A DNA stretch of 64,000 bases from an uncultured Fibrobacteraceae bacterium (GCA_964420395.1 CAYQTJ010000001.1:17006-81005); one strand, 5' to 3'; positions 4,587-64,000 are shown, numbered from the stretch's first letter. Notes: generated by a model from the letters alone, not told the origin. A program made the numbers and translations.

Positions 4587-4667
4587 TTTTCCGCGGATCA
4601 TCGTGAATGGGGTCGCTCGCGCGGGGCGCGCGGGTGTGGCTGTCTGCGTGCGCGAGGAGAGGCTGCG

Positions 4668-7273: not shown

Positions 7274-7295
7274 CCCGCACCGGAGGACGACGCCG

Positions 7296-13520: not shown

Positions 13521-13763
13521 GGGGCCTGCCTCCGGGGTCGGCGTGGCGGACGGTCGGCGCGTCTGCGATGCCGCGCCGGGCGGACGGGGCAGGGTAGCAC
13601 GGCCGGACGGTCGCGGTCTGCGGCTTCGGGGCCTGGCCCGCCGGCCCTCTCGACAGGAGCGCCCCGGGTGTGCTAGGATACTGGACTCATACAGTATCAT
13701 ATTGCGGACTGCTGGCGGGCGCTTCCCCGCCCGCCGGCCTATCTCCTTGAAAAGGAGAGAGAT

Positions 13764-17576: not shown

Positions 17577-17768
17577 GCTGCGGCGTCCGGCGGCGACGCC
17601 GGCCCGCCTCTACGCCCGGGGCCCCCCGGTAAATCCCACTGGAATCCCCCTGTCTGCGGTCACCTCGTGGGGTGCGCCCGGCCGGCCGTGTGCCTATACT
17701 TGCCGGGTTGTTTCGGCGGCGGCCGCCTGCCGGCGGCGCCGGTCCACCCATTTCGGAGGCTTCACTCC

Positions 17769-36470: not shown

Positions 36471-36804
36471 GTTCCGACGGGCGGCGGTCGTGCCCCGCCT
36501 CTGTTTCAACAGGATCATCCAGCGCGCATGATGAGCACCTCCGGTTCGGCAAACCCCCACGGTGCCTCCCGCCGAACCGGTGGTGCTGAACATGAAGAGC
36601 CGGAATCATGGCGGAAATCACACGCCTCCCGCGGCCGGACCGCGATCGCGCGGCGCCGACGACGCGGGGCTTCGATAATCCACGACCATTCTCGTTGCGG
36701 TTTGACGGTCCTGCCGTAGCGTGGTGGGGCTGGCCGGTCGGGGGGGCGCGGCCGGCGCGCTGCCGCCCCGTGACCTTTCCGCCGCCGGCCGGCCAGGAGG
36801 GACC

Positions 36805-38472
36805 TTGCTCGAATTGAGGGGATCGCTCGCGGGCCGGGAGATCCGCGTGCCGCTGCGGCCGGGCCGGCACCGCCTCGGCCGGGCGCCGCTCAACGACATC
36901 GTGCTCGATGACCGTTCGGTCTCGCGGGAGCACGCCGAGATCGCGGTCGGGGAGCACCGCGCGTCGGTCCACGACCTCGGCAGCAAGAACGGCACCTGGC
37001 TGAACGACCTGCCGGTGACCGAGCCGGTGCCGCTCGCCCGCGGCGACCGTCTCAGCCTCGGCTCGGTCCTGCTGACGGTCGCGTCGGACACCGGCGAAAC
37101 GACCCTGGGCCGGACCCTCTTCGCCGATTCGCTCGCCGGGCCGATCGGGCCGGGGGCGGAGCTGTCCGTGGTGGCCGCCTCGCGGGTCAGCCTCGACCAG
37201 GTGAGCGTGTCGCCCGCCTCGCTGCCCGAGGGCGATCGCCTGCTGATGAACGCCCTGACGAAGGTCGGGCAGTTCCTCGTCCTGCCGAGCCCCCTGAACG
37301 AGACCTGCGACCGCCTGCTCGGCCTGGTGGAGCAACTGGTGCAGGCGCGGCGGTACCTGCTCCTGCTCTCGCGGGAGGACGGCAGGGACTTCACGGTCTT
37401 CGCGTCCCGCCCGGCGCAGACGTCGCACGCGTCCAACCTCATCCTCAGCCGCACGCTCCTCGACACCGTGCTCGAGGGCCGGGAGGCGCTGGTCCTCAAC
37501 GACGCGCCGTCTGACGCCCGCTTCAGCGCGCACGAGAGCATCGTGGCCTCGCGGCTGCGCTCGGCGATGGTCGCGCCGCTGGTCGACAGCGAGCGGGTGA
37601 TCGGCCTGCTCTACGCCGACAGCGACGATCCCTCGGCGCGCTACGACTCCGAGAAGCTGCGCCTCTTCTCGTTCCTGGCCAACCTGATCGCGGTGAAGAT
37701 CGCCAACGCGCGCCTGCTCGAGCTCAAGGCGGAGAAGGACCGCATGGCGCGCGAGGCCGCGGCCGCGGCGCAGGTCCAGCGCCACCTGCTGCCGACCACG
37801 CGGCCCGAGGTGCCCGGCTACGACATCCTGGCCCGTCAGATCCCCTGCTACGAGGTGGGGGGGGACCTGCACGACACGGCGGTGCTCGACGACGGGCGGG
37901 TGGTGGTGGTCGTGGGGGACGTGACCGGCAAGGGGATGGGGGCGGCGCTGCTGATGTCCAACACGCTGGCCGCGCTGCGGGTGCTCTACACCGAGCCGGG
38001 CGCGCTCGAGACGGTCGTGGAGCGGGTGCACCGCGAGCTGCTGCAGGCGTCGGACGACATGCACTTCGTGACGCTGTTCATCGGCGTGCTCGATCCGCGG
38101 GAGCACCGGCTGACCTACGTCAACGCGGGGCACAATCCGCCGATCCTGCTCGGCGCCGCCGCCGCCCCCCTCCGGCTCACGCCGACCGGCCTGCCGCTCG
38201 GCCTGATCCCCGGGGCGGTCTACCGGAGCGCGGAGGTCGACCTCCCGCCGTCCGCCCTGCTCTGCATCCACACCGACGGCATCCCCGAGGCGGCGCTGGG
38301 CGAGGAGTTCTACGAGGACGAGCGCCTGATCGCCACGCTGCGCAACGGCCGCGCCGGTCCGATCGAGACGATCGCCGAGGCGATCGTGGGCGACCTGCGC
38401 GCCTTCCTGGGCGAGGCCCCCTTCGACGACGACGTCACCTTCCTGCTCGTGCGGCGCGGCGACGCGGCCTGA
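36805..38472 (+). CDS. FHA - GAF - PP2C (SpoIIE/RsbU-type) serine phosphatase
   Basis: Probable TTG start at 36805, 4 nt after AGGAGG; the ORF track starts at 36721. FHA pattern: GRAPLNDIVLDDRSVSREHAEI...GSKNGTWLN. A GAF-like middle region follows. PP2C pattern: VGGDLHD, VVVGDVTGKGMGAALLM, VNAGHNPP and IHTDGI. Confidence 0.8.
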   Translation: MLELRGSLAGREIRVPLRPGRHRLGRAPLNDIVLDDRSVSREHAEIAVGEHRASVHDLGSKNGTWLNDLPVTEPVPLARGDRLSLGSVLLTVASDTGETTLGRTLFADSLAGPIGPGAELSVVAASRVSLDQVSVSPASLPEGDRLLMNALTKVGQFLVLPSPLNETCDRLLGLVEQLVQARRYLLLLSREDGRDFTVFASRPAQTSHASNLILSRTLLDTVLEGREALVLNDAPSDARFSAHESIVASRLRSAMVAPLVDSERVIGLLYADSDDPSARYDSEKLRLFSFLANLIAVKIANARLLELKAEKDRMAREAAAAAQVQRHLLPTTRPEVPGYDILARQIPCYEVGGDLHDTAVLDDGRVVVVVGDVTGKGMGAALLMSNTLAALRVLYTEPGALETVVERVHRELLQASDDMHFVTLFIGVLDPREHRLTYVNAGHNPPILLGAAAAPLRLTPTGLPLGLIPGAVYRSAEVDLPPSALLCIHTDGIPEAALGEEFYEDERLIATLRNGRAGPIETIAEAIVGDLRAFLGEAPFDDDVTFLLVRRGDAA

Positions 38473-38488: not shown

Positions 38489-39376
38489 TCAGGGCGGGGA
38501 ACCGTCCGCCGGGTCGGCCGGCGCGAGGCCGGCGGGCGACGGCAGCTCGCCCAGGCGCGTCACGACCCGGGCCTGCGGCAGGGCCGCGGCCACGGTCGGG
38601 GGCGCCGCGGCGCGGCCGCCCACGATCAGACGGGCGCCGACCTCCAGCGCCGCCGCGGCCACGGGGGCGGCGCTGTCCGCCAGGCTCGCGCCGGCCGGCA
38701 GCGCGGACACGCTCAGCCAGCAAAGCCGCGGGCGCAGGCGCCGGGCCGCCGCGGCGAGCTGGTCGGGCGGCAGCCCGCAGCCGCAGTTGATGGTCCGCCA
38801 TCCCAGCTCGCGCAGCCCCAGTTCGACCATCGCGTTGGGCAGCGTGTACGGGTCGCCCGCGAACGTGCCGCCCAGCGCCATGGGGGCGTCCCCGGCCGGC
38901 GCGGGCAGCACGTGGCGCAGCTCGTGCAGCAGGCCGAGGGCGATCTCGCAGCCGCGCCGCTCCTCGTACACCTCCAGCGCCCCGTGCTGCCACCGCTCGC
39001 CCAGCGCCGCGAACGCCGGCGCGATCGCCTCGTCGCAGAGGTCGCCCAGGGTCAGGCCGCTCAGGTAGAGGTTGAGGGCCAGGCCGCGGAAGCGCTCCTC
39101 CTCGCCGCCGGCCAGGGACTCGATCATCTCCCGGCGCGTCCGCGAAACCACCACCCGCCCCTGCGCCACGGCCGAGGGCAGGCCGAGCAGCTCGGGGTGG
39201 GGCAGCGGGTGGCCGCTCTCGCGCAGGTACTGTACGACGCCGCTGAGGGTCAGCCGCCGGTGCCCTCCCGGCGTGCGCACCGATGGCAACAATCCCTTGT
39301 CGCACCACCGCTTCAACGAGGCCTCGCTGACGCCGATCGCGCGCGCCACCTGCCGCGGGGAGAGCTGCTCGGTCAT
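38489..39376 (-). CDS. MerR/HTH_17 + cobalamin-binding-like domain regulator (CarH/LitR family, His-less variant)
   Basis: 295 aa. N-terminal HTH is LSPRQVARAIGVSEASLKRWCDKGLL...GHRR. The helical-bundle motif reads W129-x9-E-R (canonical Wx9EH). The Rossmann-like motif reads GDPYTLPNAMVELGLRELGW, with Tyr where the lower-axial His normally sits. Confidence 0.8.
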   Translation of the reverse strand: MTEQLSPRQVARAIGVSEASLKRWCDKGLLPSVRTPGGHRRLTLSGVVQYLRESGHPLPHPELLGLPSAVAQGRVVVSRTRREMIESLAGGEEERFRGLALNLYLSGLTLGDLCDEAIAPAFAALGERWQHGALEVYEERRGCEIALGLLHELRHVLPAPAGDAPMALGGTFAGDPYTLPNAMVELGLRELGWRTINCGCGLPPDQLAAAARRLRPRLCWLSVSALPAGASLADSAAPVAAAALEVGARLIVGGRAAAPPTVAAALPQARVVTRLGELPSPAGLAPADPADGSPP

Positions 39377-39411
39377 GTCGCCCTTTCCGTTCCGTTTGGA
39401 TGATATGAACG

Positions 39412-39440
39412 AATTTTAATGCAAAAGGGGCAGATCGGCA
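39412..39440 (-). promoter_or_regulatory. Sigma70-type promoter for the LitR-like gene (minus strand): TTGCCG-N17-TAAAAT
   Basis: On the reverse complement, TTGCCG (39440-39435) is followed by a 17-nt spacer and TAAAAT (39417-39412). The -10 overlaps a TGAACGAATTT repeat copy. Confidence 0.5.
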
Positions 39441-50223: not shown

Positions 50224-53200
50224 CTACTTGACGAGCGCCATGCGGCCCGTGTACGAGTCGGCCCCCGCCGTCACCCGGTAGAAGTACACCCCGGAGGAGA
50301 CCGCGTGGCCGGCGTCGTCGCGGCCGTTCCACTGCGTCTCGTGGGCGGCGGCCGGCAGGACGGCGTCCACGAGGACGCGCACCAGCCGTCCGGCCAGGTC
50401 GTACACGTTCACGCTGACGCGGCCGGCGGCCGGCAGCGTGAAGCGGATCCTGGTCAGCGGGTTGAACGGGTTGGGAGCCGCGTTCTCGACGCGGAAGACG
50501 AGCGCCGGCAGGTCCGGGTCGTCGAGGACCGGAACCAGCGCGCACATCACGCCGAGGGCGCCGATCAGGCCGCAGGCGCCGCTGACGGCCGGCTCGCACG
50601 GCGAGAGCGGCTTGAGGCCGTAGCCGCCGTCCGCGGGGAAGCAGAACTGCGGGTCGAGCGCGATGTTGCCGGCGGTGCCGGTGGGATCGGCCACGCCGGT
50701 GTAGCTCGTGCCGGTGTTGCTCCAGGCGTCGTTGCAGGTGAACGTCGGCGTGGACGACTGGGCGTGCACGGCGTTGCCGAACGTGGTGCCGCCGGTGTTG
50801 AGCGCGAAGATGTTGTTGGCGATGCCCGGGCTGGCGGCGTTCAGGTAGAGGCCGGCGGCGCCGACGCCGGCCGTGTTGGCGGCGAAGGTGTTGCCTCGCA
50901 CCTCGCCGGCCGCCACGGTCTGGCTGCTCAGGCCGCCGCCGAAGATGTCGGCCGCGTTGGCGCTGAAGACGCAGTGGCGCACGTCGGACTGCGGACTGCT
51001 GGTGACGGCTCCGCCCGCGCCGACCTGGGCGGTGTTGGCGCGCGAGAGCACGCTGTCGAGCGTGACGGTGGCGTTCTCGACGGCGAATGCGCCGCCGACC
51101 ATGAAGGTGGCCCCGGCCGCCTTGCCGTTGTCGTGCAGGTCGTCGCGGAGCATCGTGATGGCGTTGCCGCTCATCGCCAGGCCGCCGCCCTTGACGCGGG
51201 CCGTGTTGTGGTGGATCCGGTTGCCGACCAGGGCCAGCGAGGTCGTCGCGAGGGTGTTGGCCGCGTAGATGCCGCCGCCCGCCTCCGCGTCGACGTGGCC
51301 GCTGATCTCGCAGCCGTCCAGCAGCAGCGTGGTGTCGGTCGCGTAGATGCCGCCGCCGCGCGGCGGGTACGAGCCGTTGTCCTGCACCAAGACGTTGTCG
51401 TAGATGCGGCAGTCGCGCAGGGTGGGGGCGCCCAGGTAAGCGTAGACGCCGGCGCCCTGGACCGCGCTGTTGCCGTGCACCGTCACGTTCTCGAGCAGCG
51501 CCGAGGAGTTGGACAGCATGATGCCGCCGCCGCCGCCGAACTCGGAGGTGCCGCCCACGGAATTGCCGGTCACCTCGATGTTGCGCAGGGTGGGGGAGGT
51601 GCCGTTGCAGATGATCCCGCCGCCGTAGCGGCCGGTCTGCGGGCTGGAGAAGACCTGGCCGCCGCCGCCGCTGATGAGCAGGCCGTCGACCACGGTGCCC
51701 AGCCCGGTGCCGGTCTGGAAGAGCAGGCCGCTGCCGGAGAGGGAGGCGTTCAGGGGCGTGGGCGTGCCGACCGGATCGCGGGAGGCGAAGTCGGCGGCAT
51801 AGCCGCCGAGCAGGTAGAAGGACTTGTTCGCGACCGTCAGCGGACCGGTCAGCGGGGACGCGGCGCTGAGCGCGACGGTGTCGCCGGGGGCGGCCTCGTT
51901 CTGGGCGTCGAGCAGGCTGGAGAATTCGTCGGGGTACTTCAGCAGGCGGTCGCCGAGAGCCCGCAGCAGGTTCACCCGGCCGGAGCCGAGCTTGCCGGCC
52001 AGCCCCGGATTGAGCGCGTCGATGTTGTCGGCGGTCGACATGAGGCGGGTTCCCACCCCGAGGGCGGTCAGGCCCGGCTCGGCCGACATGATCAGCGCCG
52101 CCGCGCCGCAGGTCAGCGGCGAGCTGAACGACGTCCCGGCGACGGTGTTGTAGCCGTGCGAGCCGTCGGAGGCGACGTACCAGGTGGTGTAGATCCCGGT
52201 GCCGGGCGCGCTCAGTTCCACCCAGGTGCCGTAGCTCGAGAAGCTGGTCTTGCCGTCGTTGGCGTCGGTGGCGGCCACCGCGATCACGCCGGGGTAGTCG
52301 GCGAGGAACGAGGGCACTTCGTTGGCGTCGTTGCCGGCGGCGGTGATCACGAGGGCGCCGGCGGCCAGGCAGTAGTCCGCCGCCGTCTGCAGGTACTCGG
52401 TGGAGCCCCAGCTGCAGTTGATGAACTTGGCGCCGTTGGCCGCCGCGTAGATCATGCCCTGGGAGGCGAAGTCCATCCGCACCACGCCGGTCGTGGCGCC
52501 GTTCTGCAGCCAGCCGACGCGCACCGGCATGATCTTGCAGCCCCAGGAGGCGCCCGAGATGCCGACGCCGTTGTTGGTGATGGCGGCCGCCACGCCGGCG
52601 CAGGCCGTGCCGTGGCTCTCCCAGTCCGAGGGATCGTTGTCCGGCACGCTGACGTCCTCGCCCGGTTCGCCGGTCACGCCGGTGACGAAGTCCCAGCCGC
52701 GGGAGTCGTCGACCTTGCCGTTGCCGTCGTCGTCGACGCCGGCCACGCCGTTGGCCTCCGGCCAGTTGGTCCAGATCGCCCCGCGCCGGTAGTTGGGGCC
52801 GGAGCCGCCGAGGTCGGGGTGGCGCCAGTCGACGCCGGAGTCGACGATGGCGATGATCACGTTGCTGTCGCCCTGCGCCTCGGCCCAGCCGCCCACGGCG
52901 CGGATGTCCTTGGCGCCGAGCGTGAGATTGCGCAGGTACCACTGGGAGCCGAGGAACGGATCGTTGGGCAGCGCCGTCTGCGCGCAGATGTCCACCGCCT
53001 CCGCCCGGGCCACCTCCGGCAGCGCGGCGTAGGCCGCGAGCACGGCGTCGAGATCGACCGCCGTGGCGAAATCGACGGCCCAGACCAGGCTCAGGTCGGG
53101 CAGGCCCGCCTTCTTCGCGGGCGGCACCCCCTCGTAGAGGCGCGACATGTCGTGCGCCCCGAAGCGGTCGGCCAGCGCCTGGAGGGCGGGCCGATCGACC

Positions 53201-53373
53201 GTCACGCCGCCGGCCCGCTTGGCGACCGTCGGCTGCACGCCCGGCCGCAGGGTGATCACGACACGATCCGGCACGCGGGAGCCGGGCCCCCCCGCGGGGG
53301 CCGCGGGCGACGCGGCGGCCGACAGGGCGGAAATGGCGCAGGCGCCAACGAGGATGGCGAGACGCAGCTTCAT
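50224..53373 (-). CDS. Secreted S8 (subtilisin-family) serine protease with a right-handed beta-helix repeat region and a C-terminal FlgD-Ig/T9SS-type domain
   Basis: 1049 aa with a signal peptide. Catalytic triad contexts are [20 protein letters not shown] and [16 protein letters not shown] long Gly/Asn-rich repeat region (GGGIYA...N, typical of pectate-lyase-like helices) follows. The C-terminal domain is [31 protein letters not shown]...WNGRDDAG...SGVYFYRV. Confidence 0.85.
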
Positions 53374-54720: not shown

Positions 54721-55558
54721 GTACCGGGCATACCTGTGCGATGTCGAAGGGGTGCTGGTGCGGGACAAGGGCTACCGCGCGGTGCCGGGATCGGTGGCGT
54801 GGTTCAACCGGCTGGCGGCGCGCGGCATCGCCTCCTGCCTCGTCAGCAACAACAGCACCCACACTCCGGCCGAGCTGGGCGAGGCCCTGCGCGCCGCCGG
54901 CTTCGCCGTGGCGCCGGAGCGGATCGTCACCGCCCTGGAACTCGCCGCCGGGCGACTGGCGTCCGACGGCCGGCGGCGGCTGCTCTGGCTGGGGCACCCG
55001 CGCCTGGCCGGCTGGTGGCGGGAGCGCGGGTTCACGCTCGTGGGCGAGCCTCCCCCCGGCGGGGCGGCCGGCGCGGCCGGCGGGGCGCCCGGCGGGGCCA
55101 CGGCGGCAGGCGGGGAGGCCGACGCCGTCGTGCTGGGGGTCAACCCGACCCTCGGCGTGCCGGAACTCGAGCGGGCGCTCGGCTGCCTGCTGGCGGGGCA
55201 GACGGCGCTGATCGCGCTGCACCGCAACCATTTCTGGCTGGACGAGCGGGGGGAGCGCCGGCTGGGGCCGGGCGCCTGGTGCGCCGCCCTGGAGACCGCC
55301 GCCGGCTGCGCGGCGGTCACGATCGGCAAGCCGGAGGAGCCGATCTACCGGGAAGCGCTGGAAAGGGTTGGCGTCGCCGCGCCGGAGGCCCTATTCATTT
55401 CAGATGATCCCCTGGCGGATCTGCCGACCGCGAAGCGGCTCGGCATGGGGACCGCCTTCGTCCTGAGCGGCAAGCACGCGGATCATGCGGTGCTGCGCCG
55501 CCTCGAGCAGGCGGAGTGGCCGGACGTCATCTGCGACCGGCCCGAACACGTCGGTTGA
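54704..55558 (+). CDS. HAD-IIA (NagD-like) hydrolase-family protein
   Basis: The GTG at 54704 overlaps the glycosyltransferase 3' end by 17 nt. Motif I reads LCDVEGVL (DxE instead of DxD). Also SNNS (motif II) and GKPE...FISDD (motifs III/IV). Confidence 0.75.
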   Translation: MPPPREYRAYLCDVEGVLVRDKGYRAVPGSVAWFNRLAARGIASCLVSNNSTHTPAELGEALRAAGFAVAPERIVTALELAAGRLASDGRRRLLWLGHPRLAGWWRERGFTLVGEPPPGGAAGAAGGAPGGATAAGGEADAVVLGVNPTLGVPELERALGCLLAGQTALIALHRNHFWLDERGERRLGPGAWCAALETAAGCAAVTIGKPEEPIYREALERVGVAAPEALFISDDPLADLPTAKRLGMGTAFVLSGKHADHAVLRRLEQAEWPDVICDRPEHVG

Positions 55559-55587
55559 GCGGCCCGCGCCGCGGACGGGGAGCGGAT

Positions 55588-56508
55588 TTGGCGCTCGAGA
55601 GCGACAGCGCGGTGCGGTACGGCGGCCCGTCATCCGGCGGCCCACCCCCGGCCGAGGAGAAGGAACGCGAACGGGCGGTCCGGCCGGAGACGATCCGCCA
55701 CGCCCTCACCGCCTGGGAACTGGAATCCACCCGCGGACAGCGGCCCGACACGCCGCGCGCCCGGGCCAGCCTGCTGCGCGCCCACCAGCGGCTGCGCGCG
55801 GAGATGGAAGAACGGCGGGGCGTCCCGCCGGCCGACCGATCGATCATGCTCGCCGGGGAGGAGGGGGCGGACGCGGTGCTGGTCATCCACGGCGCCACCT
55901 CCACGCCGGCCGAGATGCGGCCGCTCGCCGAGGCGATCCACGCCGCCGGCTTCACCGTCTACGCCCCGCTCTTGCCGACCCGCGCCAATCTCGCGCCGGG
56001 CCTCGGCGACGTCCTCTGGCGGGCCTGCCTGCAGGAGGCCCGGCTGCGGCTGCGCTTCCTGCGCGAGGTGGGCCCGCGCGTGCACGTCGTCGGCCTGAGC
56101 TTCGGCGCCGCGATCGCCATCCACCTCGCCGGCGAGGAGAAGCCGCAGGGGGTGGTCCTGCTCGCGCCGGCCCTCGAGCCGCGCCTGCCGCTCTACGTGC
56201 GGCTGCTGCTGCGGCTGAACGTGCACCGGTTGCAGTGGGTGCGGCGCAAGTACGGCTGGAGCCTCGAGGTGCTCGAGGCGATGGAGAGGGCGCGGCCGCT
56301 GCTCTCCCGGCTCGACATGCCGGTCTACGCGGCGCAGTGCCAGGACGACGAGCGGATCGCGGCCGTCTCCCTGCGGATGGTCCAGCGCAAGGCCAGGCAC
56401 AAGGCCTCCCGCTTCCGCCTCTACCCCCGCGGAGGGCACCGGATCCTGCAGGCCCACGGTCCCGCCGGCCTCCACGCCGAAATCGTCGACTTCCTGCGGG
56501 AGATCTGA
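55588..56508 (+). CDS. Alpha/beta-hydrolase (carboxylesterase-like)
   Basis: The start is uncertain: TTG 55588, GTG 55516 or ATG 55804. Contains VLVIHGATSTP, the nucleophile elbow VVGLSFGAAIA and a C-terminal GGHRIL (His). Confidence 0.7.
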   Translation: MALESDSAVRYGGPSSGGPPPAEEKERERAVRPETIRHALTAWELESTRGQRPDTPRARASLLRAHQRLRAEMEERRGVPPADRSIMLAGEEGADAVLVIHGATSTPAEMRPLAEAIHAAGFTVYAPLLPTRANLAPGLGDVLWRACLQEARLRLRFLREVGPRVHVVGLSFGAAIAIHLAGEEKPQGVVLLAPALEPRLPLYVRLLLRLNVHRLQWVRRKYGWSLEVLEAMERARPLLSRLDMPVYAAQCQDDERIAAVSLRMVQRKARHKASRFRLYPRGGHRILQAHGPAGLHAEIVDFLREI

Positions 56509-56681
56509 CCCCGGGAGCGGCCCGCCGCCGCTCCCCGTTTCGCGCCAGAATCCGCTACGGTCCGCCGATTCCCGGTCGAAATGCACAGAGAGCCGGGGCG
56601 CCCCGGCCGCGCCAGGATCCCGTGTCCGGCGGGCGCGGCCGCGCGTTGCGGTCCCGCTGTGAGCAACGAAAGGAAGCCGGG

Positions 56682-58541
56682 ATGAGCGAGCGTGAGGACG
56701 AGTTCGGCGCGGACCCCGACGCCGAGGCCTGGAAGGACTCGCCCGCGGCCGGAGATTCGCCGGCCGTCACGGGCTGGGAAGCGTGGGATACGAAGCCGGA
56801 GCCCGCCGCCGCGCCGACGGCGCCTCACCGCCACGGACCGCTGGGCGGCTTGCAGCCGCCGTGGCTGCCGGGCGCGCTGAGCGCCCTGCTCGTGGTGCTC
56901 GCGGGCGCGGTCGCCTTCGGGGCGGCGCGCGGCGGCTTCAGGGGGCCGCTCGACGTGCGCGGCCTGGTCGGTCTCGGCTTCGCCGCGGGCGGCGCGCTGG
57001 CGCTGGCGGCGCTCGCCGGGTGGGCGGTCAGCACGCTGGCGGCCCGCTACGAGCGCGAGCACCGGCGGCACCGCGCCCTGCTGGCCCGGCTGGGGACGCT
57101 CGACCTGGACAGCGACAGCGGCTGGCAGGATCCGTCGCTGCGCGCCGAGGGGGACCTGTCGCGGTTCCTCGACGCCGTGCGGGCCCGCGATCGCCTGCAG
57201 CGGTCGGCGCTGGCCAGGTCCGCGGTCCTCGAGGGGGAACTGACCCGCCTCGGCAAGGGGCTGCTCGCGGGCGAACGGTCCGCCGTCACCGAGGCGTACG
57301 AGATGCCGCTGGTCGGCCGGGCCGCGTCGGGAGCGGCGCTGCTGCACGAGGAGATCGACCGGCTGCGCGTCGCGCAGGCGGAACTGGAAGCGAAGCTGCA
57401 GGAGGCCGGCGGCCAGGCCACGACCGCCGCCGCCGAGGCGCGGCGCTGGCAGGCCCAGGCCGGCGGGCGCCTGGGCGCCCTGCAGACCGCCCTGCAGCGC
57501 GTCGGGTCCGAGACCCAGCGGCTGGCCGGCGCCTTCGCGGAGAAGCTGCGCGCGCTCGAGGAGATCGAGCAGCGCGGGGTGCCTTCGCTCGTCGACGTGC
57601 GGGGCGCCCTGCCGGCGGAGGCCGCCGGCGCCCAGGCGGGGCAGTTGATCCAGACCGCGCACGCCATCAAGGACCTGGTCGCCCGCGGCGGCAGCCTGGC
57701 GATCCAGACCGCCCTCGAGGTGACGCGGCTGGGCGATCGGGGGGAGACTCTCTTCCCGCTCACGGAGAGCCTCAAGAGCCTGGTCACGGAGTTCCAGGGC
57801 ATCGCGACCCGCCTCGAGAGGGCGGCGCGCGACCAGGAGTCGACCGGGTCGGCGCTGGCCCGCGCGCAGGCCCAGATGGACGAAATCGTCGCCGCCTCCG
57901 GGCGCGACATCCCCGAGCCGGAAGCGTGGCGCCGCGGCGCCGCGCGGGCCGGCGAGCTCCGGGCCGCCCTCGTGCGGATCGGCGCCGACGCCGACGCCCT
58001 CGTGCAGGCCTTCGCGGAGCAGGGCGCGCGCCTCGAGGCGCTCGCCGGGGCGCTGTCCGAGCTGACCGGAGTCGCCTGCGAGGCGATCGACGCGACGGCG
58101 CCCGGCGCCGGCGGCTTCGAGATCGAGGCGTTCGGCGGCCCGGCGCTCGGCGAGTCGGATCCCGCGTTCCCGGCCCGGGCCCCGGCGGCACCGCCGGCAA
58201 CGCCCGCGCCGGCCGCGCCGACGGCGGCCGCCCCCGCGCACGACCGCCTCTTCGCGGTGGACGCGCCTCCGGCCGGGGCGCCCGCGGCGCCGGCCGCGCC
58301 GCGCGGCGGATCGATCTTCGCGCCGGAGGAGCCGCGGCTCGATGGCGGCGAACCGGACGCGCCGGCGACCCCGGAGGCTCCCGCGGAGGCTGCCGCGGAG
58401 GCGGAGCGCATCTACGAGCTGGCGGAGTTCGGCGCCGTCGCGCTCGACGCTCCGTCGGCGGCGCCGGCGGCACCGCCGGCGATGGAGGAGGAGGATCACA
58501 TTTACGATCTTCACGAACTGGGCGCCGTGGCCCTCGGCTGA
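56682..58541 (+). CDS. Two-TM membrane protein with a long coiled-coil and a divergent MCP signalling-tip-like segment; twin C-terminal IY(E/D)L.E(F/L)GAVAL motifs
   Basis: The ATG at 56682 follows AAAGGAAG. 619 aa. TM helices span about aa 61-82 and 94-117. Residues 339-368 (LAIQTALEVTRLGDRGETLFPLTESLKSLV) align by eye to the MCP tip [30 protein letters not shown]. Confidence 0.6.
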   Translation: MSEREDEFGADPDAEAWKDSPAAGDSPAVTGWEAWDTKPEPAAAPTAPHRHGPLGGLQPPWLPGALSALLVVLAGAVAFGAARGGFRGPLDVRGLVGLGFAAGGALALAALAGWAVSTLAARYEREHRRHRALLARLGTLDLDSDSGWQDPSLRAEGDLSRFLDAVRARDRLQRSALARSAVLEGELTRLGKGLLAGERSAVTEAYEMPLVGRAASGAALLHEEIDRLRVAQAELEAKLQEAGGQATTAAAEARRWQAQAGGRLGALQTALQRVGSETQRLAGAFAEKLRALEEIEQRGVPSLVDVRGALPAEAAGAQAGQLIQTAHAIKDLVARGGSLAIQTALEVTRLGDRGETLFPLTESLKSLVTEFQGIATRLERAARDQESTGSALARAQAQMDEIVAASGRDIPEPEAWRRGAARAGELRAALVRIGADADALVQAFAEQGARLEALAGALSELTGVACEAIDATAPGAGGFEIEAFGGPALGESDPAFPARAPAAPPATPAPAAPTAAAPAHDRLFAVDAPPAGAPAAPAAPRGGSIFAPEEPRLDGGEPDAPATPEAPAEAAAEAERIYELAEFGAVALDAPSAAPAAPPAMEEEDHIYDLHELGAVALG

Positions 58542-58592
58542 CGACCGCGTGCCGCGCGTCCGCCCGGACGGGCGCGCGGCGCGACATCGCCC

Positions 58593-60695
58593 ATGAACGA
58601 TCACATCCAGCTCTTCACCCTGCAGTTGCGCGAGCAGCTGGCGGGGCTGCGCGAAGTGTCGGTGCAGGGCCGCTGGGACGGGCCGGCCCCCGCGTCGCTG
58701 CCCCGCGCCGTCATCGCGACCCGTCTGCTCGCCGGCAGCAGCGAACTGCTCGGCGTGACGGCGCTGCGCGACTGGCTGCGCATCCTGCTCGAGCTCCTGA
58801 ACTGGATCGCCGAGAACCCGCACGGCGCCCTGGCCGCCTACGAGCCGGTGCTGCGCGAGATCGTGGCGTTCGAGGAGGCGCTCATCGAGGGGCTGGACGG
58901 CGGGGGGGCGCCGGAGGACCTGGTGTCGCCGGAGCGCGTGGCCCGCCTGCGCCAGGGTTTCGCCGCCGCGGCGCGGGAGCATGCCACCGCGCGCGCGCGG
59001 GCGGCGTCCGGCGCGCCGCCGCGTCCGGAGCCGGAGCCGGTCCGGCTGCGTCTGGAGGGTCTCGACGACCCGCGGGCGGTCGTCTCGTGGGAGTCGATGC
59101 TGGCGATCATCGAACGGCTCGTCACCAAGGTGCCCCATCCCCGGCCGAGCGATGACCCGCAGGCCGACGAGGAGCGCTCGCGGCGCCAGCAGCGCTGGCG
59201 GCAGGTCCGTGCGCTCGGCGACTCGCTGTTCGAAACCGAGGACTACGAGCGCGACGCCGCGCCGGCGGAGGCCGAGGCGAAGGATCCCCACGAGGCGCTG
59301 CCGCTCCTGCCCGGCGGGGCCCTGTTCCGGGAGGCGCTCGGGGCGGGGTGGCGCGAGGGGCTGACCGCCGTGAAGGGGGACCAGCCGGCCGGCGGCGACG
59401 GCCGCGAGCCGTGGACGCTGCGCTGGCGCGTGCCGGGGCTGACCGTGGAGGGGGCGCCGCCGGGATCGCCCGGGGTGGACGAGCTGTTCCCGGAGGAGGA
59501 GCAGCGGCGCTACGGACGGCTGCTCGGGCTGATGGCGACCGATCTCTGCCAGGCGATCGGGCCCGCCGCGCCGCGCTGGCTGCTGCTGGTGGATCTGGGC
59601 GCGGAGCGGGTGACCGCCGAGTTCCGCCGTCCTCCGGGCCGGATGCCGGCCGAGGCGGCGCGGGCGCTCGGCCATCTGCTGGAGGAGGACTTCCTCATCG
59701 AGTCCCCCAGCCTGCGCGCCGCGCTGCGGCGGCTGCGGCGGGACGGCGCGCTCGTGCACGCGCATTTCGGACCGCGCGGCGAGGGCTGCCTCCAGGTGGT
59801 GCTGCCGCTGCACCTCGCCGGCGCGCCCGAGGTGTGCGTGCTGTCGCTCGCGGACGCGGAGGTGGCGGCCCCCCTGCACCTCGTGGAGGCGGTCGTGCCG
59901 GCGGAGGGGTGGCAGCGGCGCAGCGCGCACGACGGCGATACGCTGGTCCGCCAGGGGCAGAGCCTGCTCGCCGCCGACCTCGCCTCCTGGGTGGAACTGC
60001 TCATGCCGACCTCCACGACCGAGCCGGGCGGCCACCTCGCCCTCGTCGGTCTGGTGGAGAAGCGGGTGGCACTGCTCACCACCGGCCCGGCCCGGCGCGC
60101 CGCCGTGGTCCGCTACGTGGAGACCCCGGCCGGCTGGGAGGCGGTCGCCAGGAGCGGCGTGGAGACGGCGGGCGGGATCGTGCTGCCGCTGCTGGACATC
60201 GAGAAGGTCCTGTCGCTGCGGTTGAGCCGCGCCGAGCCGGTCGACGGGGCCGGCGGGGACCTGGCGGCCGACTGGAGTCCCGGCGGCCCCGCTCCGGCGG
60301 GCGCCGCGTCCGCCGCGTCGGACGGCGCGCCCGCGGGGGGACCGGGGGCGCGCATCCTGCTGCTGGTGGCGAGCCGATTCCGCGCGGGCGACCTGGAGGA
60401 GAAGCTGGCCAAGTCCGGCTATGCGGTCAGCGTCTGCACCGAGCCGGGCGAGGCGCGCGGCCGCCTGCGGTCCGGGGACATCGACGCGATCGTCTGCGAC
60501 AACGCGGAGCCGGCCCGCTGCCTGGACGGACTCCTCGCCCTGCTGGCGCAGCACGGCGAGACGGCGCCCGGCCCGGTCATCCTGGCGACCGGCAGCAGCG
60601 GCGAACCGGCGCGCCGCCTGGCGCGGCGGCTCGGGGCCACCGGCGTCTGGACCCCCCCCTACCTCGTGGACGAACTGCGGTCCCAACTGGTCTGA
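58593..60695 (+). CDS. CheA-like scaffold without a recognisable kinase domain: Hpt-like (His-less) N-terminus, CheW-like domain and pseudo-receiver
   Basis: 700 aa. The N-terminal four-helix-like segment ...RAVIATRLLAGSSELLGV... lies where Hpt has RxxHxxKG. The CheW-like pattern spans about aa 412-540 (VRQGQSLLAADLASW..., HLALVGLVEKRVALL, GGIVLPLLDIEKVL). In the C-terminal REC-like fold, LLLVAS replaces DD and TPP replaces KP. No N/G1/G2 ATP-binding boxes were seen. Confidence 0.55.
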   Translation: MNDHIQLFTLQLREQLAGLREVSVQGRWDGPAPASLPRAVIATRLLAGSSELLGVTALRDWLRILLELLNWIAENPHGALAAYEPVLREIVAFEEALIEGLDGGGAPEDLVSPERVARLRQGFAAAAREHATARARAASGAPPRPEPEPVRLRLEGLDDPRAVVSWESMLAIIERLVTKVPHPRPSDDPQADEERSRRQQRWRQVRALGDSLFETEDYERDAAPAEAEAKDPHEALPLLPGGALFREALGAGWREGLTAVKGDQPAGGDGREPWTLRWRVPGLTVEGAPPGSPGVDELFPEEEQRRYGRLLGLMATDLCQAIGPAAPRWLLLVDLGAERVTAEFRRPPGRMPAEAARALGHLLEEDFLIESPSLRAALRRLRRDGALVHAHFGPRGEGCLQVVLPLHLAGAPEVCVLSLADAEVAAPLHLVEAVVPAEGWQRRSAHDGDTLVRQGQSLLAADLASWVELLMPTSTTEPGGHLALVGLVEKRVALLTTGPARRAAVVRYVETPAGWEAVARSGVETAGGIVLPLLDIEKVLSLRLSRAEPVDGAGGDLAADWSPGGPAPAGAASAASDGAPAGGPGARILLLVASRFRAGDLEEKLAKSGYAVSVCTEPGEARGRLRSGDIDAIVCDNAEPARCLDGLLALLAQHGETAPGPVILATGSSGEPARRLARRLGATGVWTPPYLVDELRSQLV

Positions 60696-60918
60696 GCCCG
60701 AGGTGCGAAACCTTCCCGGCGCGAGTTGCGGTTTGCAATGCCACGCGCGTCCGCAGCGTGGCGCGCCCTGCCCCGCCGTGCCGCCGAACACCCGCCAGAG
60801 GCCCCGCCGCGGCCTTTGGGGCCCGATCCGGCCGTCGTCTACCCCGGGCATGGGAGTTGCTGTTCAGTCCGCCGCACCCATCGATCGCGCATCCCGGGGG
60901 TTGAGAGGAGCCGGAGCC

Positions 60919-61143
60919 ATGGACGAGCGCTTCAAAGACTACGCGAACATCTACATCGGAGGGGAGGACTCCGCCGTCAGCAAGGTCATGACCTCGGTGG
61001 AGGCGGCCGACTACCTGAAGATGCATGTCAAGACGGTGTGCCGGCTCGCCAAGGAAGGCAAGATCCCCGCGAAGAAGGTCGGCAGCGAATGGCGGTTCCT
61101 GCGCAGCGTGCTCGATCGCTGGCTGGCCGAGGAACTCGTTTAG
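60919..61143 (+). CDS. Small HTH_17 (excisionase/MerR-superfamily) DNA-binding protein
   Basis: 74 aa with RBS GAGAGGAG. The pattern MTSVEAADYLKMHVKTVCRLAKEGKIPAKKVGSEWRF is typical of helix-turn-helix domain 17. Lower GC than the neighbouring genes. Confidence 0.75.
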   Translation: MDERFKDYANIYIGGEDSAVSKVMTSVEAADYLKMHVKTVCRLAKEGKIPAKKVGSEWRFLRSVLDRWLAEELV

Positions 61144-61254
61144 CATGAGCGGCGCCGACCGCCGCGGCCCGGCAGGGCAGCGTCGCGGCGGCCGGCAGGG
61201 CGTCCCTCGGAGATCGTTTTCGACGGACGCGGCGGCGCCAGGGGGGCGGGTGTC

Positions 61255-63588
61255 GTGTCGATCAACTTCGAGTCGCTGAAACTGGCGCAGCCCGGCCTGT
61301 TCGGGGTGCGCCTGTGCGGCTCGGTGGGGCGCGCGGAGAAGGAGCGGCTGCGCGAGTTCACGGCCAAGTGCCTCGCCAACGGCAAGCTGCACCTGATCCT
61401 CGACATGACGGAGCTCGAAGCGGTCGGCGGCGGCGCGGCGGCCCTGATCGCCGGCTTCCAGCGCGACCTGACGGCCCGCGGCGGCGAGGCGGTGTTCGTC
61501 GGCGTGAACGACGTCGTGCGGCGCTTCCTGACGCTGCAGTTCGGCGACATCCCCTTCCGCAACTTCCCCACCGTCGGCGACGCCGAGACCGCGCTCGCGG
61601 CCTCCCGGGTCGGGACTTCGCAGCCGACCGGCGGGGCGGAGGCGACGGGGCCGGAGGCGACCGCGGCGGCCGTGCCGGCCGGGCCCGCCCCCGCGGCGAC
61701 GGTCGGTGGCGACGCCGACGGGCCGCCGGCGGAGCCGGGGACGCCACACTCCGACCGCGCGCTCGACATGCTGCTCGATTCCTTCGCGACGCGCGCCGGC
61801 TCCGCGACGAGGCCCGCCGCCGAGCCGGTCGCCGCGGACGGCGCCGGGGAGACCGTCCCCGGCCGCGTGCGGAACAAGGAGCGGGAGGCCGTCCCCTCCG
61901 CCGGTCCGGTTGCCGCCGGCGCCGGCGGGGCCTCCCGCCCCAGATTCGTCCCGCTCGACAGCGCCCTGCAGGCGCTGCGCGACGCGCCCGACGCCGCCGC
62001 CATGGCGGGACCGCTGCGCGACCTGCTGCACAGCTTCGACCTCGCGGGCGAGGTGACCTTCTGCGTCCGGCAGGGGGACGCGCTGGTCGATCCCGACAGC
62101 GGCGCCGCGTTCCCGGCCGCCGGCCGCCTGGCGGCGGCGCTGGCCGCGGCGGAGCGCCCGCTCTCGCTGCTGGACGCGGGCGAGCTCGACCTCGCCGAGG
62201 GCGAGATCCGCCTGCTGGCCGAACTGCGCGCCGACATGGTGCTGCCGGTCCTGCGCGACGGCGCGCTGGTCGCCGCGGCCGTGGTGCGCCGGGGCGGCGA
62301 AGGGCGCGAGTACGGGGTGAGCGACACCTTCGCCCTCTCGCTGCTGGCCCGCTGGCTCGCCACGCCCGGCGCGTCGGCGGATGCGGAGGCCGTGCCCGTC
62401 GCGCCGTCCCCCGAGGCGGCGGGCGCCGGCACGCCGGCCGGTGCCGGCGCGGCCGGCCGGGACCTGCCGGCCGAACTGCGCCGCAAGGTCGTGCAGATGC
62501 AGGCGCTGTTCTCGCTGTCCGAGGACTTCGCGCGGGTGCGCGACGGCGCCCGGCTGATGGACCTGCTCTGCGTGACGGTGACCGCGCAGCTCGGCGTGCG
62601 CGCGGTGGCGGTGCTGGAACTGGAGGGGGACCTGCTCACGCCGCGCATCTGCCGCGGCATCGAGATCGAGCAGGTGCCGCCGCTCGCCCCGTTCGGGGCG
62701 CAGATGCAGGGCTGGTTCGCCGAGCAGCCGCTGCCGGTGCCGGTCGAGGAGCTGCCGCCGCTGCTGCATCGCTTCCAGGGCCCGCTGGCGCAGGCCGGGT
62801 TCACGTTCGTGGCCCCCCTGCGCACGCGGGGCCAGCTGCTCGGCGTGCTCCTGCTCGGAGGCAGCGTGCGGGGCAGCCGGCCCGACCTCGACCTCGACTT
62901 CCTCTCCACCCTGCTCAACCAGGCCGCCATCGCGATGGACAACGCGCGCATGCTCCAGCAGACGCACGAGCAGAACATCGGCGTGATCCGCACCCTCGTC
63001 TCGCTGATCGAGCAGCGCCACCAGGCCGGCAGTTCGGTGACCGAGCGGGTGTCGGGCCTGGTGGCCGAGGTGGCGCGCGAGATGAGCTTCCCGACCGAGA
63101 AGATGCGCGATCTCGTCTACGGCACCGTGCTGCGCGACATCGGCATGATTCCGATCAGCGACCTGGTGCTGCGCTCCCCGCGCAAGCTGACCGAGAACGA
63201 GTGGAAGCAGGTCAAGGGGCACCCCGAGACCGGCGTGGAGCTGCTCGGTCCCCTGCAACTGCCGCCGACCATCCACGAGGTCGTGCTCTGCCACCACGAG
63301 CGCTTCAACGGGGAGGGATATCCGCGCGGGCTGCAGGGGCGGGCCATCCCGCTGAGCGCGCGCATCGTGGCGGTCGTCGAGAGCTACGTGGCGATGGTGT
63401 CGGAGCTGCCGTACCGCACCGCCCTGTCCGACGCCGAGGCGATCAGCATCCTCAACGAGAACTGGGGCATGCGCTACGATCCGGACATCGTCGAGGCGTT
63501 CCTGCGCGTTCTCGCGCGCGAGGACCGGTCCACGCGCCGTGACCCGTCCCCCGTGGACGCGGAGAGGCCCGTGGAGGCGGCGGTATGA
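61255..63588 (+). CDS. STAS - GAF - GAF - HD-GYP multidomain protein (HD-GYP apparently degenerate)
   Basis: 777 aa with a GTG start. The STAS-like N-terminus is LILDMTELEAVGGGAAALI. Two GAF-like regions follow (the second ends LLGVLLLGG). The HD-GYP region (aa ~575-752) has HHERFNGEGYPRGL, but reads VLRDIGM in place of LHDIGK and VTERV in place of H..RV. Confidence 0.8.
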   Translation: MSINFESLKLAQPGLFGVRLCGSVGRAEKERLREFTAKCLANGKLHLILDMTELEAVGGGAAALIAGFQRDLTARGGEAVFVGVNDVVRRFLTLQFGDIPFRNFPTVGDAETALAASRVGTSQPTGGAEATGPEATAAAVPAGPAPAATVGGDADGPPAEPGTPHSDRALDMLLDSFATRAGSATRPAAEPVAADGAGETVPGRVRNKEREAVPSAGPVAAGAGGASRPRFVPLDSALQALRDAPDAAAMAGPLRDLLHSFDLAGEVTFCVRQGDALVDPDSGAAFPAAGRLAAALAAAERPLSLLDAGELDLAEGEIRLLAELRADMVLPVLRDGALVAAAVVRRGGEGREYGVSDTFALSLLARWLATPGASADAEAVPVAPSPEAAGAGTPAGAGAAGRDLPAELRRKVVQMQALFSLSEDFARVRDGARLMDLLCVTVTAQLGVRAVAVLELEGDLLTPRICRGIEIEQVPPLAPFGAQMQGWFAEQPLPVPVEELPPLLHRFQGPLAQAGFTFVAPLRTRGQLLGVLLLGGSVRGSRPDLDLDFLSTLLNQAAIAMDNARMLQQTHEQNIGVIRTLVSLIEQRHQAGSSVTERVSGLVAEVAREMSFPTEKMRDLVYGTVLRDIGMIPISDLVLRSPRKLTENEWKQVKGHPETGVELLGPLQLPPTIHEVVLCHHERFNGEGYPRGLQGRAIPLSARIVAVVESYVAMVSELPYRTALSDAEAISILNENWGMRYDPDIVEAFLRVLAREDRSTRRDPSPVDAERPVEAAV

Positions 63589-64000
63589 GCGCCGCCCACG
63601 GCGAGGAACACCGCATTCTGCTGGCCGGGCCACCGGGCGGAGCGTGCGAGAAGATCGCCGCGACGCTGCGGCAGGCCGGCTACGCCTGCCTGCGCGCCGG
63701 CACCGGTCCGGAAGCGATCAGCCTCTTCTGCGTCGAAACGCCCCCGGTCGTGCTGATCGACGTCGATCTGCCGGGGGGGGGCGTGCTCGTCTGCCGCGAC
63801 CTGTTCGAAGCCGAAGCGGGGATCGACACGATCGTGCTGATGCTGCTGCCCGACAACGAGCAGGCGACGCGCGAAGCGGCCTTCGCCGCCGGCGCCCACG
63901 ACGCCTTCCCCCGCGACTGCGGACCGCAGGAGGTCCTCGGGCGGGTGGCCTACGCGCTGCGCGGCTGGGCGGTCTCCGCCGACCTGCGGGTGCGCAACCT
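63585..64000 (+). CDS. Receiver-like (pseudo-receiver?) domain protein, 3' end outside the window
   Basis: ATGA overlap with the upstream gene, and the frame stays open to the window end. It has the REC fold pattern (ILLAG..., VVLIDVDLPGGG, IVLMLLP, GAHDAFPRD). The DD pair, T/S and K positions appear substituted. Confidence 0.6.
   Translation, partial: MSAAHGEEHRILLAGPPGGACEKIAATLRQAGYACLRAGTGPEAISLFCVETPPVVLIDVDLPGGGVLVCRDLFEAEAGIDTIVLMLLPDNEQATREAAFAAGAHDAFPRDCGPQEVLGRVAYALRGWAVSADLRVRN

Follow-up and report, generated by a model that had tools for sequence, protein, structure and literature searches.

A conserved Krumholzibacteriota signalling gene cluster combining a CheA-like pseudokinase with a degenerate and a canonical HD-GYP protein

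Chemosensory arrays are the textbook form of kinase-based signalling in bacteria. The described system closest to the locus analysed here is Wsp of Pseudomonas (WspA/WspE/WspR), an active phosphorelay in which a methyl-accepting chemotaxis protein (MCP)-type membrane protein is combined with a hybrid CheA-receiver kinase, arranged as P1, P3, P4, P5 and receiver (REC) domains, and with an output protein that joins a receiver to a GGDEF cyclase for cyclic di-GMP (c-di-GMP). Precedents also exist for pseudo-histidine kinases, for pseudo-receivers and for inactive HD-GYP proteins: Caulobacter DivL, ShkA and RetS keep their fold for protein or ligand signalling after catalytic loss, and the inactive HD-GYP proteins include Pseudomonas aeruginosa PA2572 (YN-GYP). 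Here, we analyzed a five-gene cluster at positions 56682-64000 of a 64,000-nucleotide stretch, hereafter the window, from a genome recorded as an uncultured Fibrobacteraceae bacterium (GCA_964420395.1 CAYQTJ010000001.1:17006-81005). We interpret the cluster as a lineage-specific signalling module of the Krumholzibacteriota, derived from a chemosensory system of Wsp layout with a hybrid CheA-receiver kinase.

Open reading frame (ORF) calls and translations confirmed the five same-strand genes proposed in an initial annotation of this DNA. They lie on the + strand, as do all features below unless marked otherwise, in DNA of about 75% G+C. The first gene, g1 (56682-58541, 619 aa), encodes an MCP-like membrane protein. 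It is followed by g2 (58593-60695, 700 aa), coding for a CheA-like pseudokinase that comprises a P1-like bundle, a P3/P4-like region, a P5 (CheW-like) domain and a pseudo-receiver, and by g3 (60919-61143, 74 aa), which specifies an HTH_17 (excisionase/MerR-like) DNA-binding protein. Orthologue alignments and Pfam assign a STAS-GAF-GAF-degenerate HD-GYP protein to g4 (61255-63588, 777 aa), while only the 5′ part of g5 (63585-64000) is in the window, its 138 codons before the window end encoding a degenerate receiver. Pfam recognised HTH_17 in g3 (E=2.7e-14), which bears out the initial call of a 74-aa HTH_17 protein; STAS (E=1.2e-7), GAF_2 in two stretches (E=1.9e-9) and HD_5 (E=3e-34) in g4; and Response_reg in the visible part of g5 (E=2.8e-8). 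The window copy of g2 gave a weak Response_reg match alone (E=9e-4) and no HATPase_c match, g1 gave no Pfam match, and NCBIfam returned nothing useful for either protein. Sequence and profile searches of the PDB with g1, g2 and early alignments retrieved just receivers or designed helical bundles. The start codon of g5 overlaps the stop of g4 (ATGA); the remaining spacers measure 51 nt (g1-g2), 223 nt (g2-g3) and 111 nt (g3-g4); the translational coupling suggested initially for part of the cluster thus holds for the g4/g5 pair and for no other. We consider this anatomy of the cluster well supported.

The order g1-g2-g3-g4 is contiguous in 18 of 18 related loci (designated by L numbers), with g5 present in most, and the organisms are Krumholzibacteriota wherever a taxon is named. 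Conservation of gene order in every relative thus removes one refutation that the initial annotation had itself named. Contiguity persists from ~90% down to ~25% g2 identity, and changes are found just outside the block: L018 has gained CN_hydrolase and M16 peptidase genes, and the window and L005 lack a divergent upstream gene. The flanks are themselves syntenic, with an abhydrolase gene upstream and convergent cdaA, then folP and ftsH, downstream. For the four complete genes (g1-g4), ratios of nonsynonymous to synonymous substitution rates (dN/dS) ranged from 0.05 to 0.49; judged from these comparisons of sequences, the residue losses described below are conserved and under purifying selection. 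Among the clusters of the 18 loci, we found no genes for CheW, CheR, CheB, CheY, a kinase, a PP2C phosphatase, a GGDEF protein or an enhancer-binding protein. A published Krumholzibacteriota metagenome-assembled genome was reported to contain flagellar and chemotaxis genes (PMC10936416), which makes it probable that the present cluster is an additional, divergent system and not the motility pathway.

Close relatives of g2 are few and are labelled as Candidatus Krumholzibacteriia, as 'CheY-like chemotaxis protein' or not named at all. An exhaustive profile search delineated a family of proteins of ~650-760 aa that have the whole architecture in common; its members, when scanned, gave weak Pfam matches to HATPase_c, CheW and Response_reg and none to Hpt or H-kinase_dim. 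Profile matches outside the family were canonical hybrid CheAs with Hpt, H-kinase_dim, HATPase_c, CheW and REC domains. An AlphaFold2 model built on an alignment of 23 family members reached a mean predicted local distance difference test (pLDDT) score of 77, superseding an earlier model from 6 sequences (pLDDT 51) for which Foldseek had returned generic GHKL kinases. With the 23-sequence model, the top eight Foldseek matches in the PDB were all CheA P3-P4-P5 structures (E 2e-12 to 2e-8; CheA entries 8c5v, 6s1k, 1b3q, 3ja6, 2ch4 and 3ur1), followed by CheW and receiver domains. A profile of distant family members matched P4-P5 of Thermotoga maritima CheA (E=5e-8). Within g2, the P3/P4-like region (59157-59816, aa ~189-408) adopts a GHKL-type fold in which the nucleotide site is disabled. 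The adjoining P5/CheW-like domain (59820-60227, aa ~410-545), which carries the conserved motif GxVEKRxA, was modelled at block pLDDT 80-95 and resembles CheW and CheA P5 at template-modelling (TM) scores of 0.65-0.68 (4jpb_A, TM 0.68; 2ho9; 9a72_B), and Pfam CheW matches were obtained for g2 orthologues. The model thus predicts both a CheA P5 coupling domain and a P3-P4-P5 architecture in g2.

The amino-terminal bundle (58593-59003, aa 1-137, motif RAVIATRLLAGSSELLG) is Hpt-like, with five predicted helices at block pLDDT mostly 76-89. In an hhalign comparison with a canonical Hpt profile, 87 columns were collinear (P=0.0025, probability 12%) and Arg44 fell in the His column. A PDB profile search brought up CheA P1 structures at E=0.4-0.6 and no better, and hhalign of the amino-terminal profile against what we take to be the E. 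coli CheA P1 sequence was not significant (E=0.16). Taken together, these comparisons are suggestive of homology between the bundle and Hpt. Across the family, T43 and R44 are nearly invariant and aa 1-137 contain no conserved His at all, so that the phosphorylatable His of CheA P1 and its H-x-x-K-G context are missing.

The nucleotide site of g2 is similarly dismantled. In the alignment with T. maritima CheA, HLLRNAIDHG lies opposite hLleDvvea of distant g2 relatives, and eDDGrG opposite their rDnapr. The N-box Asn is replaced by Asp317, invariant in 23 sequences, and the G1 box DDGRG has become RRPPGR in the window clade and RDNAPR in the distant relatives used for the profile. At the ATP lid, 18 profile positions face 52 CheA residues, corresponding to a family-wide deletion of ~34 residues that includes the F and G2 boxes. 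None of the N, G1, F and G2 boxes that characterise CheA P4 is therefore retained in recognisable form, though the fold is present. The pseudo-receiver (60348-60692, aa 586-700) was delimited by the Response_reg match together with CheY and PDB alignments, and the g2 and g5 receiver folds both match REC structures. Aligned with the sequence that we take to be CheY, which served as reference for both receivers, g2 reads AS in place of the DD pair, keeps Asp57 (D636) and Thr87 (T666) and has Pro for Lys109; a low-GC g2 subgroup carries Glu instead of the acceptor Asp (SEFRMP). Of the receiver residues D12/D13, D57, T/S87 and K109, g2 thus has AS, D, T and P, and g5 has GP, D, L and R. In sum, g2 keeps the CheA-receiver fold and has lost the phospho-His, the Mg/ATP-binding residues, the ATP lid, the receiver acid pocket and the Lys. 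The initial reading of g2 as a CheA-like scaffold, with no recognisable ATP-binding boxes, no His at the expected Hpt site and neither DD pair nor Lys in its receiver, is upheld on every point by the model with its structural matches, the orthologue profiles and the alignments with Hpt, T. maritima CheA and CheY; an intact HATPase_c domain, a further outcome that would have spoken against it, is not what g2 contains. These defects are family-wide, unlike the clade-specific decay of the g5 receiver described below.

The presumed partner of g2, encoded by g1, has no periplasmic sensor domain, since its two hydrophobic helices (aa 62-82 and 95-121; hairpin at 56865-57044, read from the sequence) are joined by a 12-residue loop. 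This hairpin, conserved in orthologues as RIVLTSPWKLGLFVFLLV..., leads into an extended helical region, and the tail is rich in Pro and Ala. Homologues of g1 numbered 13, and the best-conserved stretch in the g1 alignment is IKDLVARGGSLAIQTALEVTRLGDRGETLFPLTESLKSLV (57666-57785), a hairpin-tip-like motif resembling what we take to be the MCP tip consensus; distant orthologues read EEANKLAITAALQISRLGD...AEEMRSLS here, and it is this stretch that Pfam MCPsignal matches. The MCPsignal matches in two orthologues (E=8.8e-6 and 1.1e-4) fall under the 34.6-bit gathering score, and a PDB profile search with the g1 family gave no MCP match. On the strength of the tip motif and these sub-threshold matches, the MCP-like assignment of the initial annotation is supported, and g1 is probably a membrane-anchored, MCP-derived coiled-coil protein. 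CheR and CheB genes were absent from the loci whose gene tables were read, which leaves g1 without the adaptation enzymes of MCPs in gene content.

The most persistent feature of g1 orthologues lies at the carboxy terminus. Two related peptides, RIYELAEFGAVAL and HIYDLHELGAVAL (58407-58535), end the disordered Pro/Ala-rich linker, and both copies are conserved across the 11 close homologues aligned. The corresponding motif, (I/V)YDLxEFGAV(E/A)L, ends every g1 orthologue after a Pro/Ala-rich linker and is doubled in most; at least the carboxy-terminal copy occurs in nine of nine distant orthologues, including those of L011, L012 and L015, where g1 is shortened to ~270-290 aa and the coiled-coil tip is absent. 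Enteric chemoreceptors carry the pentapeptide NWETF as a tether. By analogy, the twin peptide of g1 is a candidate docking tether for a partner protein.

On the output side, g4 begins with a STAS domain scoring 31.9 bits in Pfam, above the cut-off. Its loop, AVGGGAAAL, has Gly where SpoIIAA has D-S-S and contains no Ser or Thr, as seen for the close orthologue L001. The window clade reads GGG(A/G) and distant orthologues read GGS, GGG or GGV, the register of the distant loops having been judged by eye against what we take to be the SpoIIAA sequence. By this comparison, no Ser appears to be conserved at the SpoIIAA phospho-site across g4 orthologues. Anti-anti-sigma factors of this kind carry a phosphorylatable Ser in the DSSG loop and have a kinase or phosphatase as partner; g4 lacks the former, and the cluster contains no kinase or PP2C gene. 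Elsewhere in the window, a gene for an FHA-GAF-SpoIIE (PP2C) phosphatase is found at 36706-38472 (+); this class usually targets phospho-STAS proteins, and the g4 STAS domain has no Ser to be phosphorylated.

The HD-GYP domain of g4 (62944-63519) was aligned to the solved structures 5z7c, 4r8z and 4mcw. Metal ligands in the HD-GYP protein PmGH follow the pattern H...HD...H...HH...D. In g4, GHxxRV has become SVTERV, with loss of the first His, which the alignments place at Thr/Val; LHDIGK has become VLRDIGM, changing HD to RD and Lys to Met; and xxDxxDAx has become VVESYVAM, turning D..D into E..V. The GHP, HHE and GYP motifs are retained. By these alignments, two metal-ligand residues are lost and a third, Asp, is replaced by Glu. 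The substitutions are identical in 15 of 15 g4 orthologues, whereas 11 of 11 g5 orthologues are canonical, and together with the Pfam assignments they uphold the initial reading of g4 as a STAS-GAF-GAF-HD-GYP protein with a VGGGA loop, RD for HD and no first His. The HD-GYP part also matched the NCBIfam model 'response regulator c-di-GMP phosphodiesterase' (E=5e-40, under the model cut-off). Within g4, constraint is strongest on the degenerate HD-GYP (dN/dS 0.16, versus 0.80 for the linker). Inactivated HD-GYP domains are reported to be an accepted class of c-di-GMP targets (PMC12448109). It is plausible that g4 or the scaffold may sense c-di-GMP.

The neighbouring g5 shares ~30% identity with g4 over GAF and HD-GYP. 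Full-length g5 proteins in the related loci have 515-524 aa and the organisation REC-GAF-HD-GYP, and their HD-GYP motifs are intact (RGHTARV, LHD(I/V)GK, HP, RHHHER, GYP and AD(A/S)FDAMT in L001, L004, L005, L007 and others). All catalytic motifs are present in 11 g5 orthologues, the window copy continuing past base 64000, so the cluster has a catalytic output, and g5 is presumably an active c-di-GMP phosphodiesterase. In the window, the g5 receiver has GP for DD, Leu for Thr and Arg for Lys and keeps Asp57. In L018 this receiver has the complete canonical set (DD, D, S, K), L010, L014 and L017 retain the Lys, and L011 and L015 carry Glu at the acceptor position; with a canonical state and intermediates in hand, decay of the g5 receiver is recent and clade-specific. 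The initial annotation of g5 was therefore right on the absent DD, Thr and Lys and incomplete in describing a receiver-like protein, and its generalisation that nearly every domain of the cluster is dead, catalytically or as phospho-acceptor, is too broad in view of the Asp kept in both receivers, the intact HD-GYP of g5 orthologues and the canonical receiver of L018.

Constraint on g3 is unusually strong for a small regulator. It matched TIGR01764 at 47.8 bits, over the model cut-off, shows a dN/dS of 0.05-0.14 and remains 82-92% identical across loci of the phylum while g2 drops to ~25%. Because the locus shares its synteny with chromosomal housekeeping genes, a role as mobile-element excisionase was rejected. 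The window encodes a second regulator of the HTH_17/MerR type at 38489-39415 (-), where the fusion partner is a B12-binding domain and the layout CarH-like.

Upstream of g3, a sigma-54-type promoter was identified at 60847-60861 (GGCATGGGAGTTGCT; -24 GG and -12 GC), 57 nt 5′ of the start codon. No other match to the -24/-12 pattern occurs in the 64-kb window, for which chance alone predicts 0.10, and the element is invariant in five orthologous g2-g3 spacers that otherwise vary. Nine distant loci have TGGCA(T/C)-N6-TTGC(T/A) between positions -76 and -84 relative to the g3 start, and L018 has a weaker form of it. Located 108 nt before the -24 element, the motif GCGGTTTGCAAT (60728-60739) has one match in the whole window; GCACxTTGCAA(T/C) recurs ~120 nt 5′ of the promoter in eight of ten distant loci, with the variant GCACGATGCAAC in L016 and none in L018. 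Because ~110-120 nt upstream is the usual distance, GCGGTTTGCAAT is a candidate site for an activator (enhancer-binding protein). Neither the window nor any of the loci yielded, in motif searches, a gene for a bacterial enhancer-binding protein (bEBP) or a GGDEF protein. With GG/GC elements, canonical spacing and an upstream motif all present, g3-g4-g5 constitutes a sigma-54-dependent unit distinct from g1-g2. The HTH gene is thus the first of a separate operon with two HD-GYP genes, and the initial suggestion of a scaffold with a DNA-binding protein as its end point is not supported. Searches for sigma-70 promoters and intrinsic terminators detected none. A partly conserved motif, GCTACGGT...CGGTCGAAA (56550-56580), is found ~100-130 nt 5′ of g1 in five orthologous loci and could represent the g1-g2 promoter.

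From this anatomy, we infer a coupling mechanism in which the two units act together without phosphorylation. Products of g1 and g2 would form a membrane-bound, array-like scaffold that relays a conformational or occupancy signal through protein-protein contact instead of phosphotransfer. The carboxy-terminal twin motif of g1 could hold a partner protein, and the pseudo-receiver and P1-like domains of g2 could touch the STAS or receiver modules of g4 and g5. In this scheme, g4 would serve as a non-catalytic c-di-GMP sensor or as a regulatory partner of its live paralogue g5, the output would be local control of c-di-GMP hydrolysis, and g3 would be a transcriptional effector or an autoregulator. 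We give such a coupled, phosphorylation-independent scaffold, linked to local c-di-GMP sensing and hydrolysis, an even chance of being correct. A bolder version is possible, though we would rather doubt it: a complete chemoreceptor-CheA core may have been kept throughout the history of the phylum as a kinase-independent allosteric scaffold, with g1 peptides as tethers, dead g2 domains docking partners or binding ligand, the dead/live HD-GYP pair as readout and HTH_17 as genetic output. If true, it would be the first chemosensory array to signal wholly without phosphotransfer.

Several observations weigh against the coupled scaffold. The hhalign support for an Hpt assignment in g2 is statistically weak, coming from one comparison. 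The MCP-like tip is gone from g1 in L011, L012 and L015, and g5 is missing in L009, L013 and L016, so neither is indispensable. For the window itself, an HD-GYP domain in g5 is assumed from orthologues, of which L005 is visibly closest over the 138 shared residues. An acceptor Asp in both receivers and the canonical g5 receiver of L018 leave room for some phosphorylation input. Lastly, g1-g2 and g3-g5 have separate promoters, their physical or functional link is our reading of the locus, and adjacency alone is weak evidence because the flanking housekeeping genes are syntenic too.

These last points also define the strongest rival, which we consider unlikely: two unrelated modules, a g1-g2 membrane scaffold and an independent sigma-54 c-di-GMP module g3-g4-g5, that are neighbours by synteny. 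It accounts for the promoter and upstream motif belonging to g3, for the 223-nt gap after g2 and for housekeeping neighbours (abhydrolase; cdaA, folP, ftsH) that are likewise conserved. It does not readily account for five genes remaining contiguous and in the same order over the full range of g2 divergence despite insertions and losses immediately outside, nor for the placement of a hybrid CheA-receiver beside a receiver-fused c-di-GMP enzyme, as in the Wsp-type layout.

A cryptic phosphorelay appears improbable. Here, the acceptor Asp of g2 and g5 would receive its phosphoryl group from an unlinked kinase or from acetyl phosphate, and g2 would act as a phosphate sink or kinase docking platform. 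Phosphoryl transfer in response regulators needs the Mg-binding acidic residues and the Lys, and receivers of the window clade lack the Lys and both of the acids. Conservation of the Asp57 equivalents in both receivers speaks for such a relay, as do Thr87 in g2, the canonical g5 receiver of L018 and the Lys of L010, L014 and L017; in the low-GC g2 subgroup, however, the acceptor is Glu (SEFRMP), L011 and L015 likewise have Glu in g5, and a kinase gene occurs in 0 of 18 loci.

Even less probable, in our estimate, is a g2 that retains enzymatic activity by way of unconventional chemistry, such as binding nucleotide through Asp317 and using another acceptor residue. The invariance of Asp317 at the N-box column would fit, G1 is partly preserved in relatives that fall outside the window clade (RDDGPR / SDDGDN), and GHKL domains bind other ligands, the CckA CA domain with c-di-GMP (5idm_B) having been among the Foldseek matches of the first model. 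Against this, the whole family has lost ~34 residues of the lid, the F and G2 boxes among them, the adenine-contacting G1 Asp is Arg in the window clade, and the amino-terminal bundle has no conserved His. Decaying pseudogenes or assembly error, for which nothing speaks beyond the degeneracy itself, are effectively refuted by intact frames in 18 loci from independent assemblies, by the recurrence of the same substitutions throughout and by dN/dS values well under 1, with their minima in g3 and the degenerate HD-GYP of g4.

Additional features were noted around the cluster. In most loci that reach far enough, cdaA, encoding a c-di-AMP synthase, is convergent and just 3′ of the cluster (L001 17155-17958, -), with folP, ftsH and tilS after it; two cyclic-dinucleotide functions adjoin here, which may be mere synteny. 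Divergent from g1 in most loci is a gene for a protein of ~250 aa with no Pfam match (L001 7011-7772, -; L004 6147-6983, -; L018 5894-6667, -), and in the window and L005 the abhydrolase gene directly precedes g1. An anti-phage defence system was rejected, PADLOC giving no more than weak HTH (mad1) and HD (Cas3) matches and the setting being one of chromosomal housekeeping synteny, and a riboswitch was ruled out in that Rfam returned nothing relevant over 55000-64000. Further away in the window, 50224-53373 (-) and 13677-16745 (+) encode large secreted-type proteins with a carboxy-terminal FlgD_ig-like domain, one of which is an S8 peptidase syntenic in all relatives, and 4587-10379 and 17577-19400 carry efflux genes with RND (AcrB-type) and outer-membrane (OEP) domains.

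Should the coupled scaffold prove correct, an array lattice could signal, or simply organise its partners, without catalysis, much as eukaryotic pseudokinases do. The g4/g5 pair offers a natural dead/live combination for probing inactive HD-GYP domains as c-di-GMP sensors, and the loci with tip-less g1 (L011, L012, L015) or without g5 (L009, L013, L016) are natural variants useful for studying how the parts depend on each other. As a defined five-gene, two-promoter unit, the cluster can be moved to a tractable host, which matters for a phylum known here from metagenome assemblies alone. Furthermore, the CheA-like assignment corrects the database labels 'response regulator' and 'CheY-like chemotaxis protein' for the g2 family.

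Literature searches for a kinase-dead CheA or for this cluster returned nothing relevant, and within the literature searched there was no complete CheA-class pseudokinase accompanied by an MCP-like protein and by a dead/live HD-GYP pair with phylum-wide conservation. Known systems resemble the cluster in part. With STAS antagonists such as SpoIIAA and RsbV, g4 shares its amino-terminal STAS fold; it differs in having GGG instead of a phosphorylatable Ser and in the fusion of STAS to GAF and HD-GYP, and the cluster lacks a SpoIIAB-type kinase or PP2C phosphatase. Orthologues of g5 are, like RpfG-type regulators, receiver-fused HD-GYP proteins with all catalytic motifs, but they insert a GAF domain between receiver and HD-GYP, and g5 of the window clade has a receiver without DD, Thr and Lys and no linked cognate sensor kinase. 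In keeping GYP and HHE and losing HD and the first His, g4 is comparable to inactive HD-GYP proteins such as PA2572, and its conservation despite an inactive appearance is as expected of a regulatory pseudoenzyme. Its STAS-GAF-GAF amino terminus, the phylum-wide RD / T(E/D) / E..V pattern and the adjoining live paralogue set it apart.

Among proteins that keep a fold for signalling after catalytic loss, ShkA (6qrj) and RetS (6dk7) were themselves structural matches of g2. DivL, ShkA and RetS belong to the classical DHp-CA class and not to the CheA class, however, and have no MCP-like receptor partner. The most extensive likeness is to Wsp, with which the cluster shares the pairing of an MCP-type membrane protein with a hybrid CheA-receiver of the same domain order and an output protein in which a receiver is fused to a c-di-GMP-metabolising domain; in addition, the nearest matches of the g2 profile outside its family are hybrid CheA-REC kinases of the Wsp kind. 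The complete core of a Wsp-like (alternative cellular function, ACF) system is not present, given the absence of CheW, CheR and CheB genes, the disabled CheA and, in the window clade, the degenerate output receiver. Where Wsp relies on active phosphotransfer and a GGDEF cyclase, the Krumholzibacteriota cluster has neither the His, the ATP site nor the receiver acid pockets, ends in an HD-GYP phosphodiesterase with a dead paralogue and adds an HTH_17 gene and a sigma-54 promoter to the shared layout.

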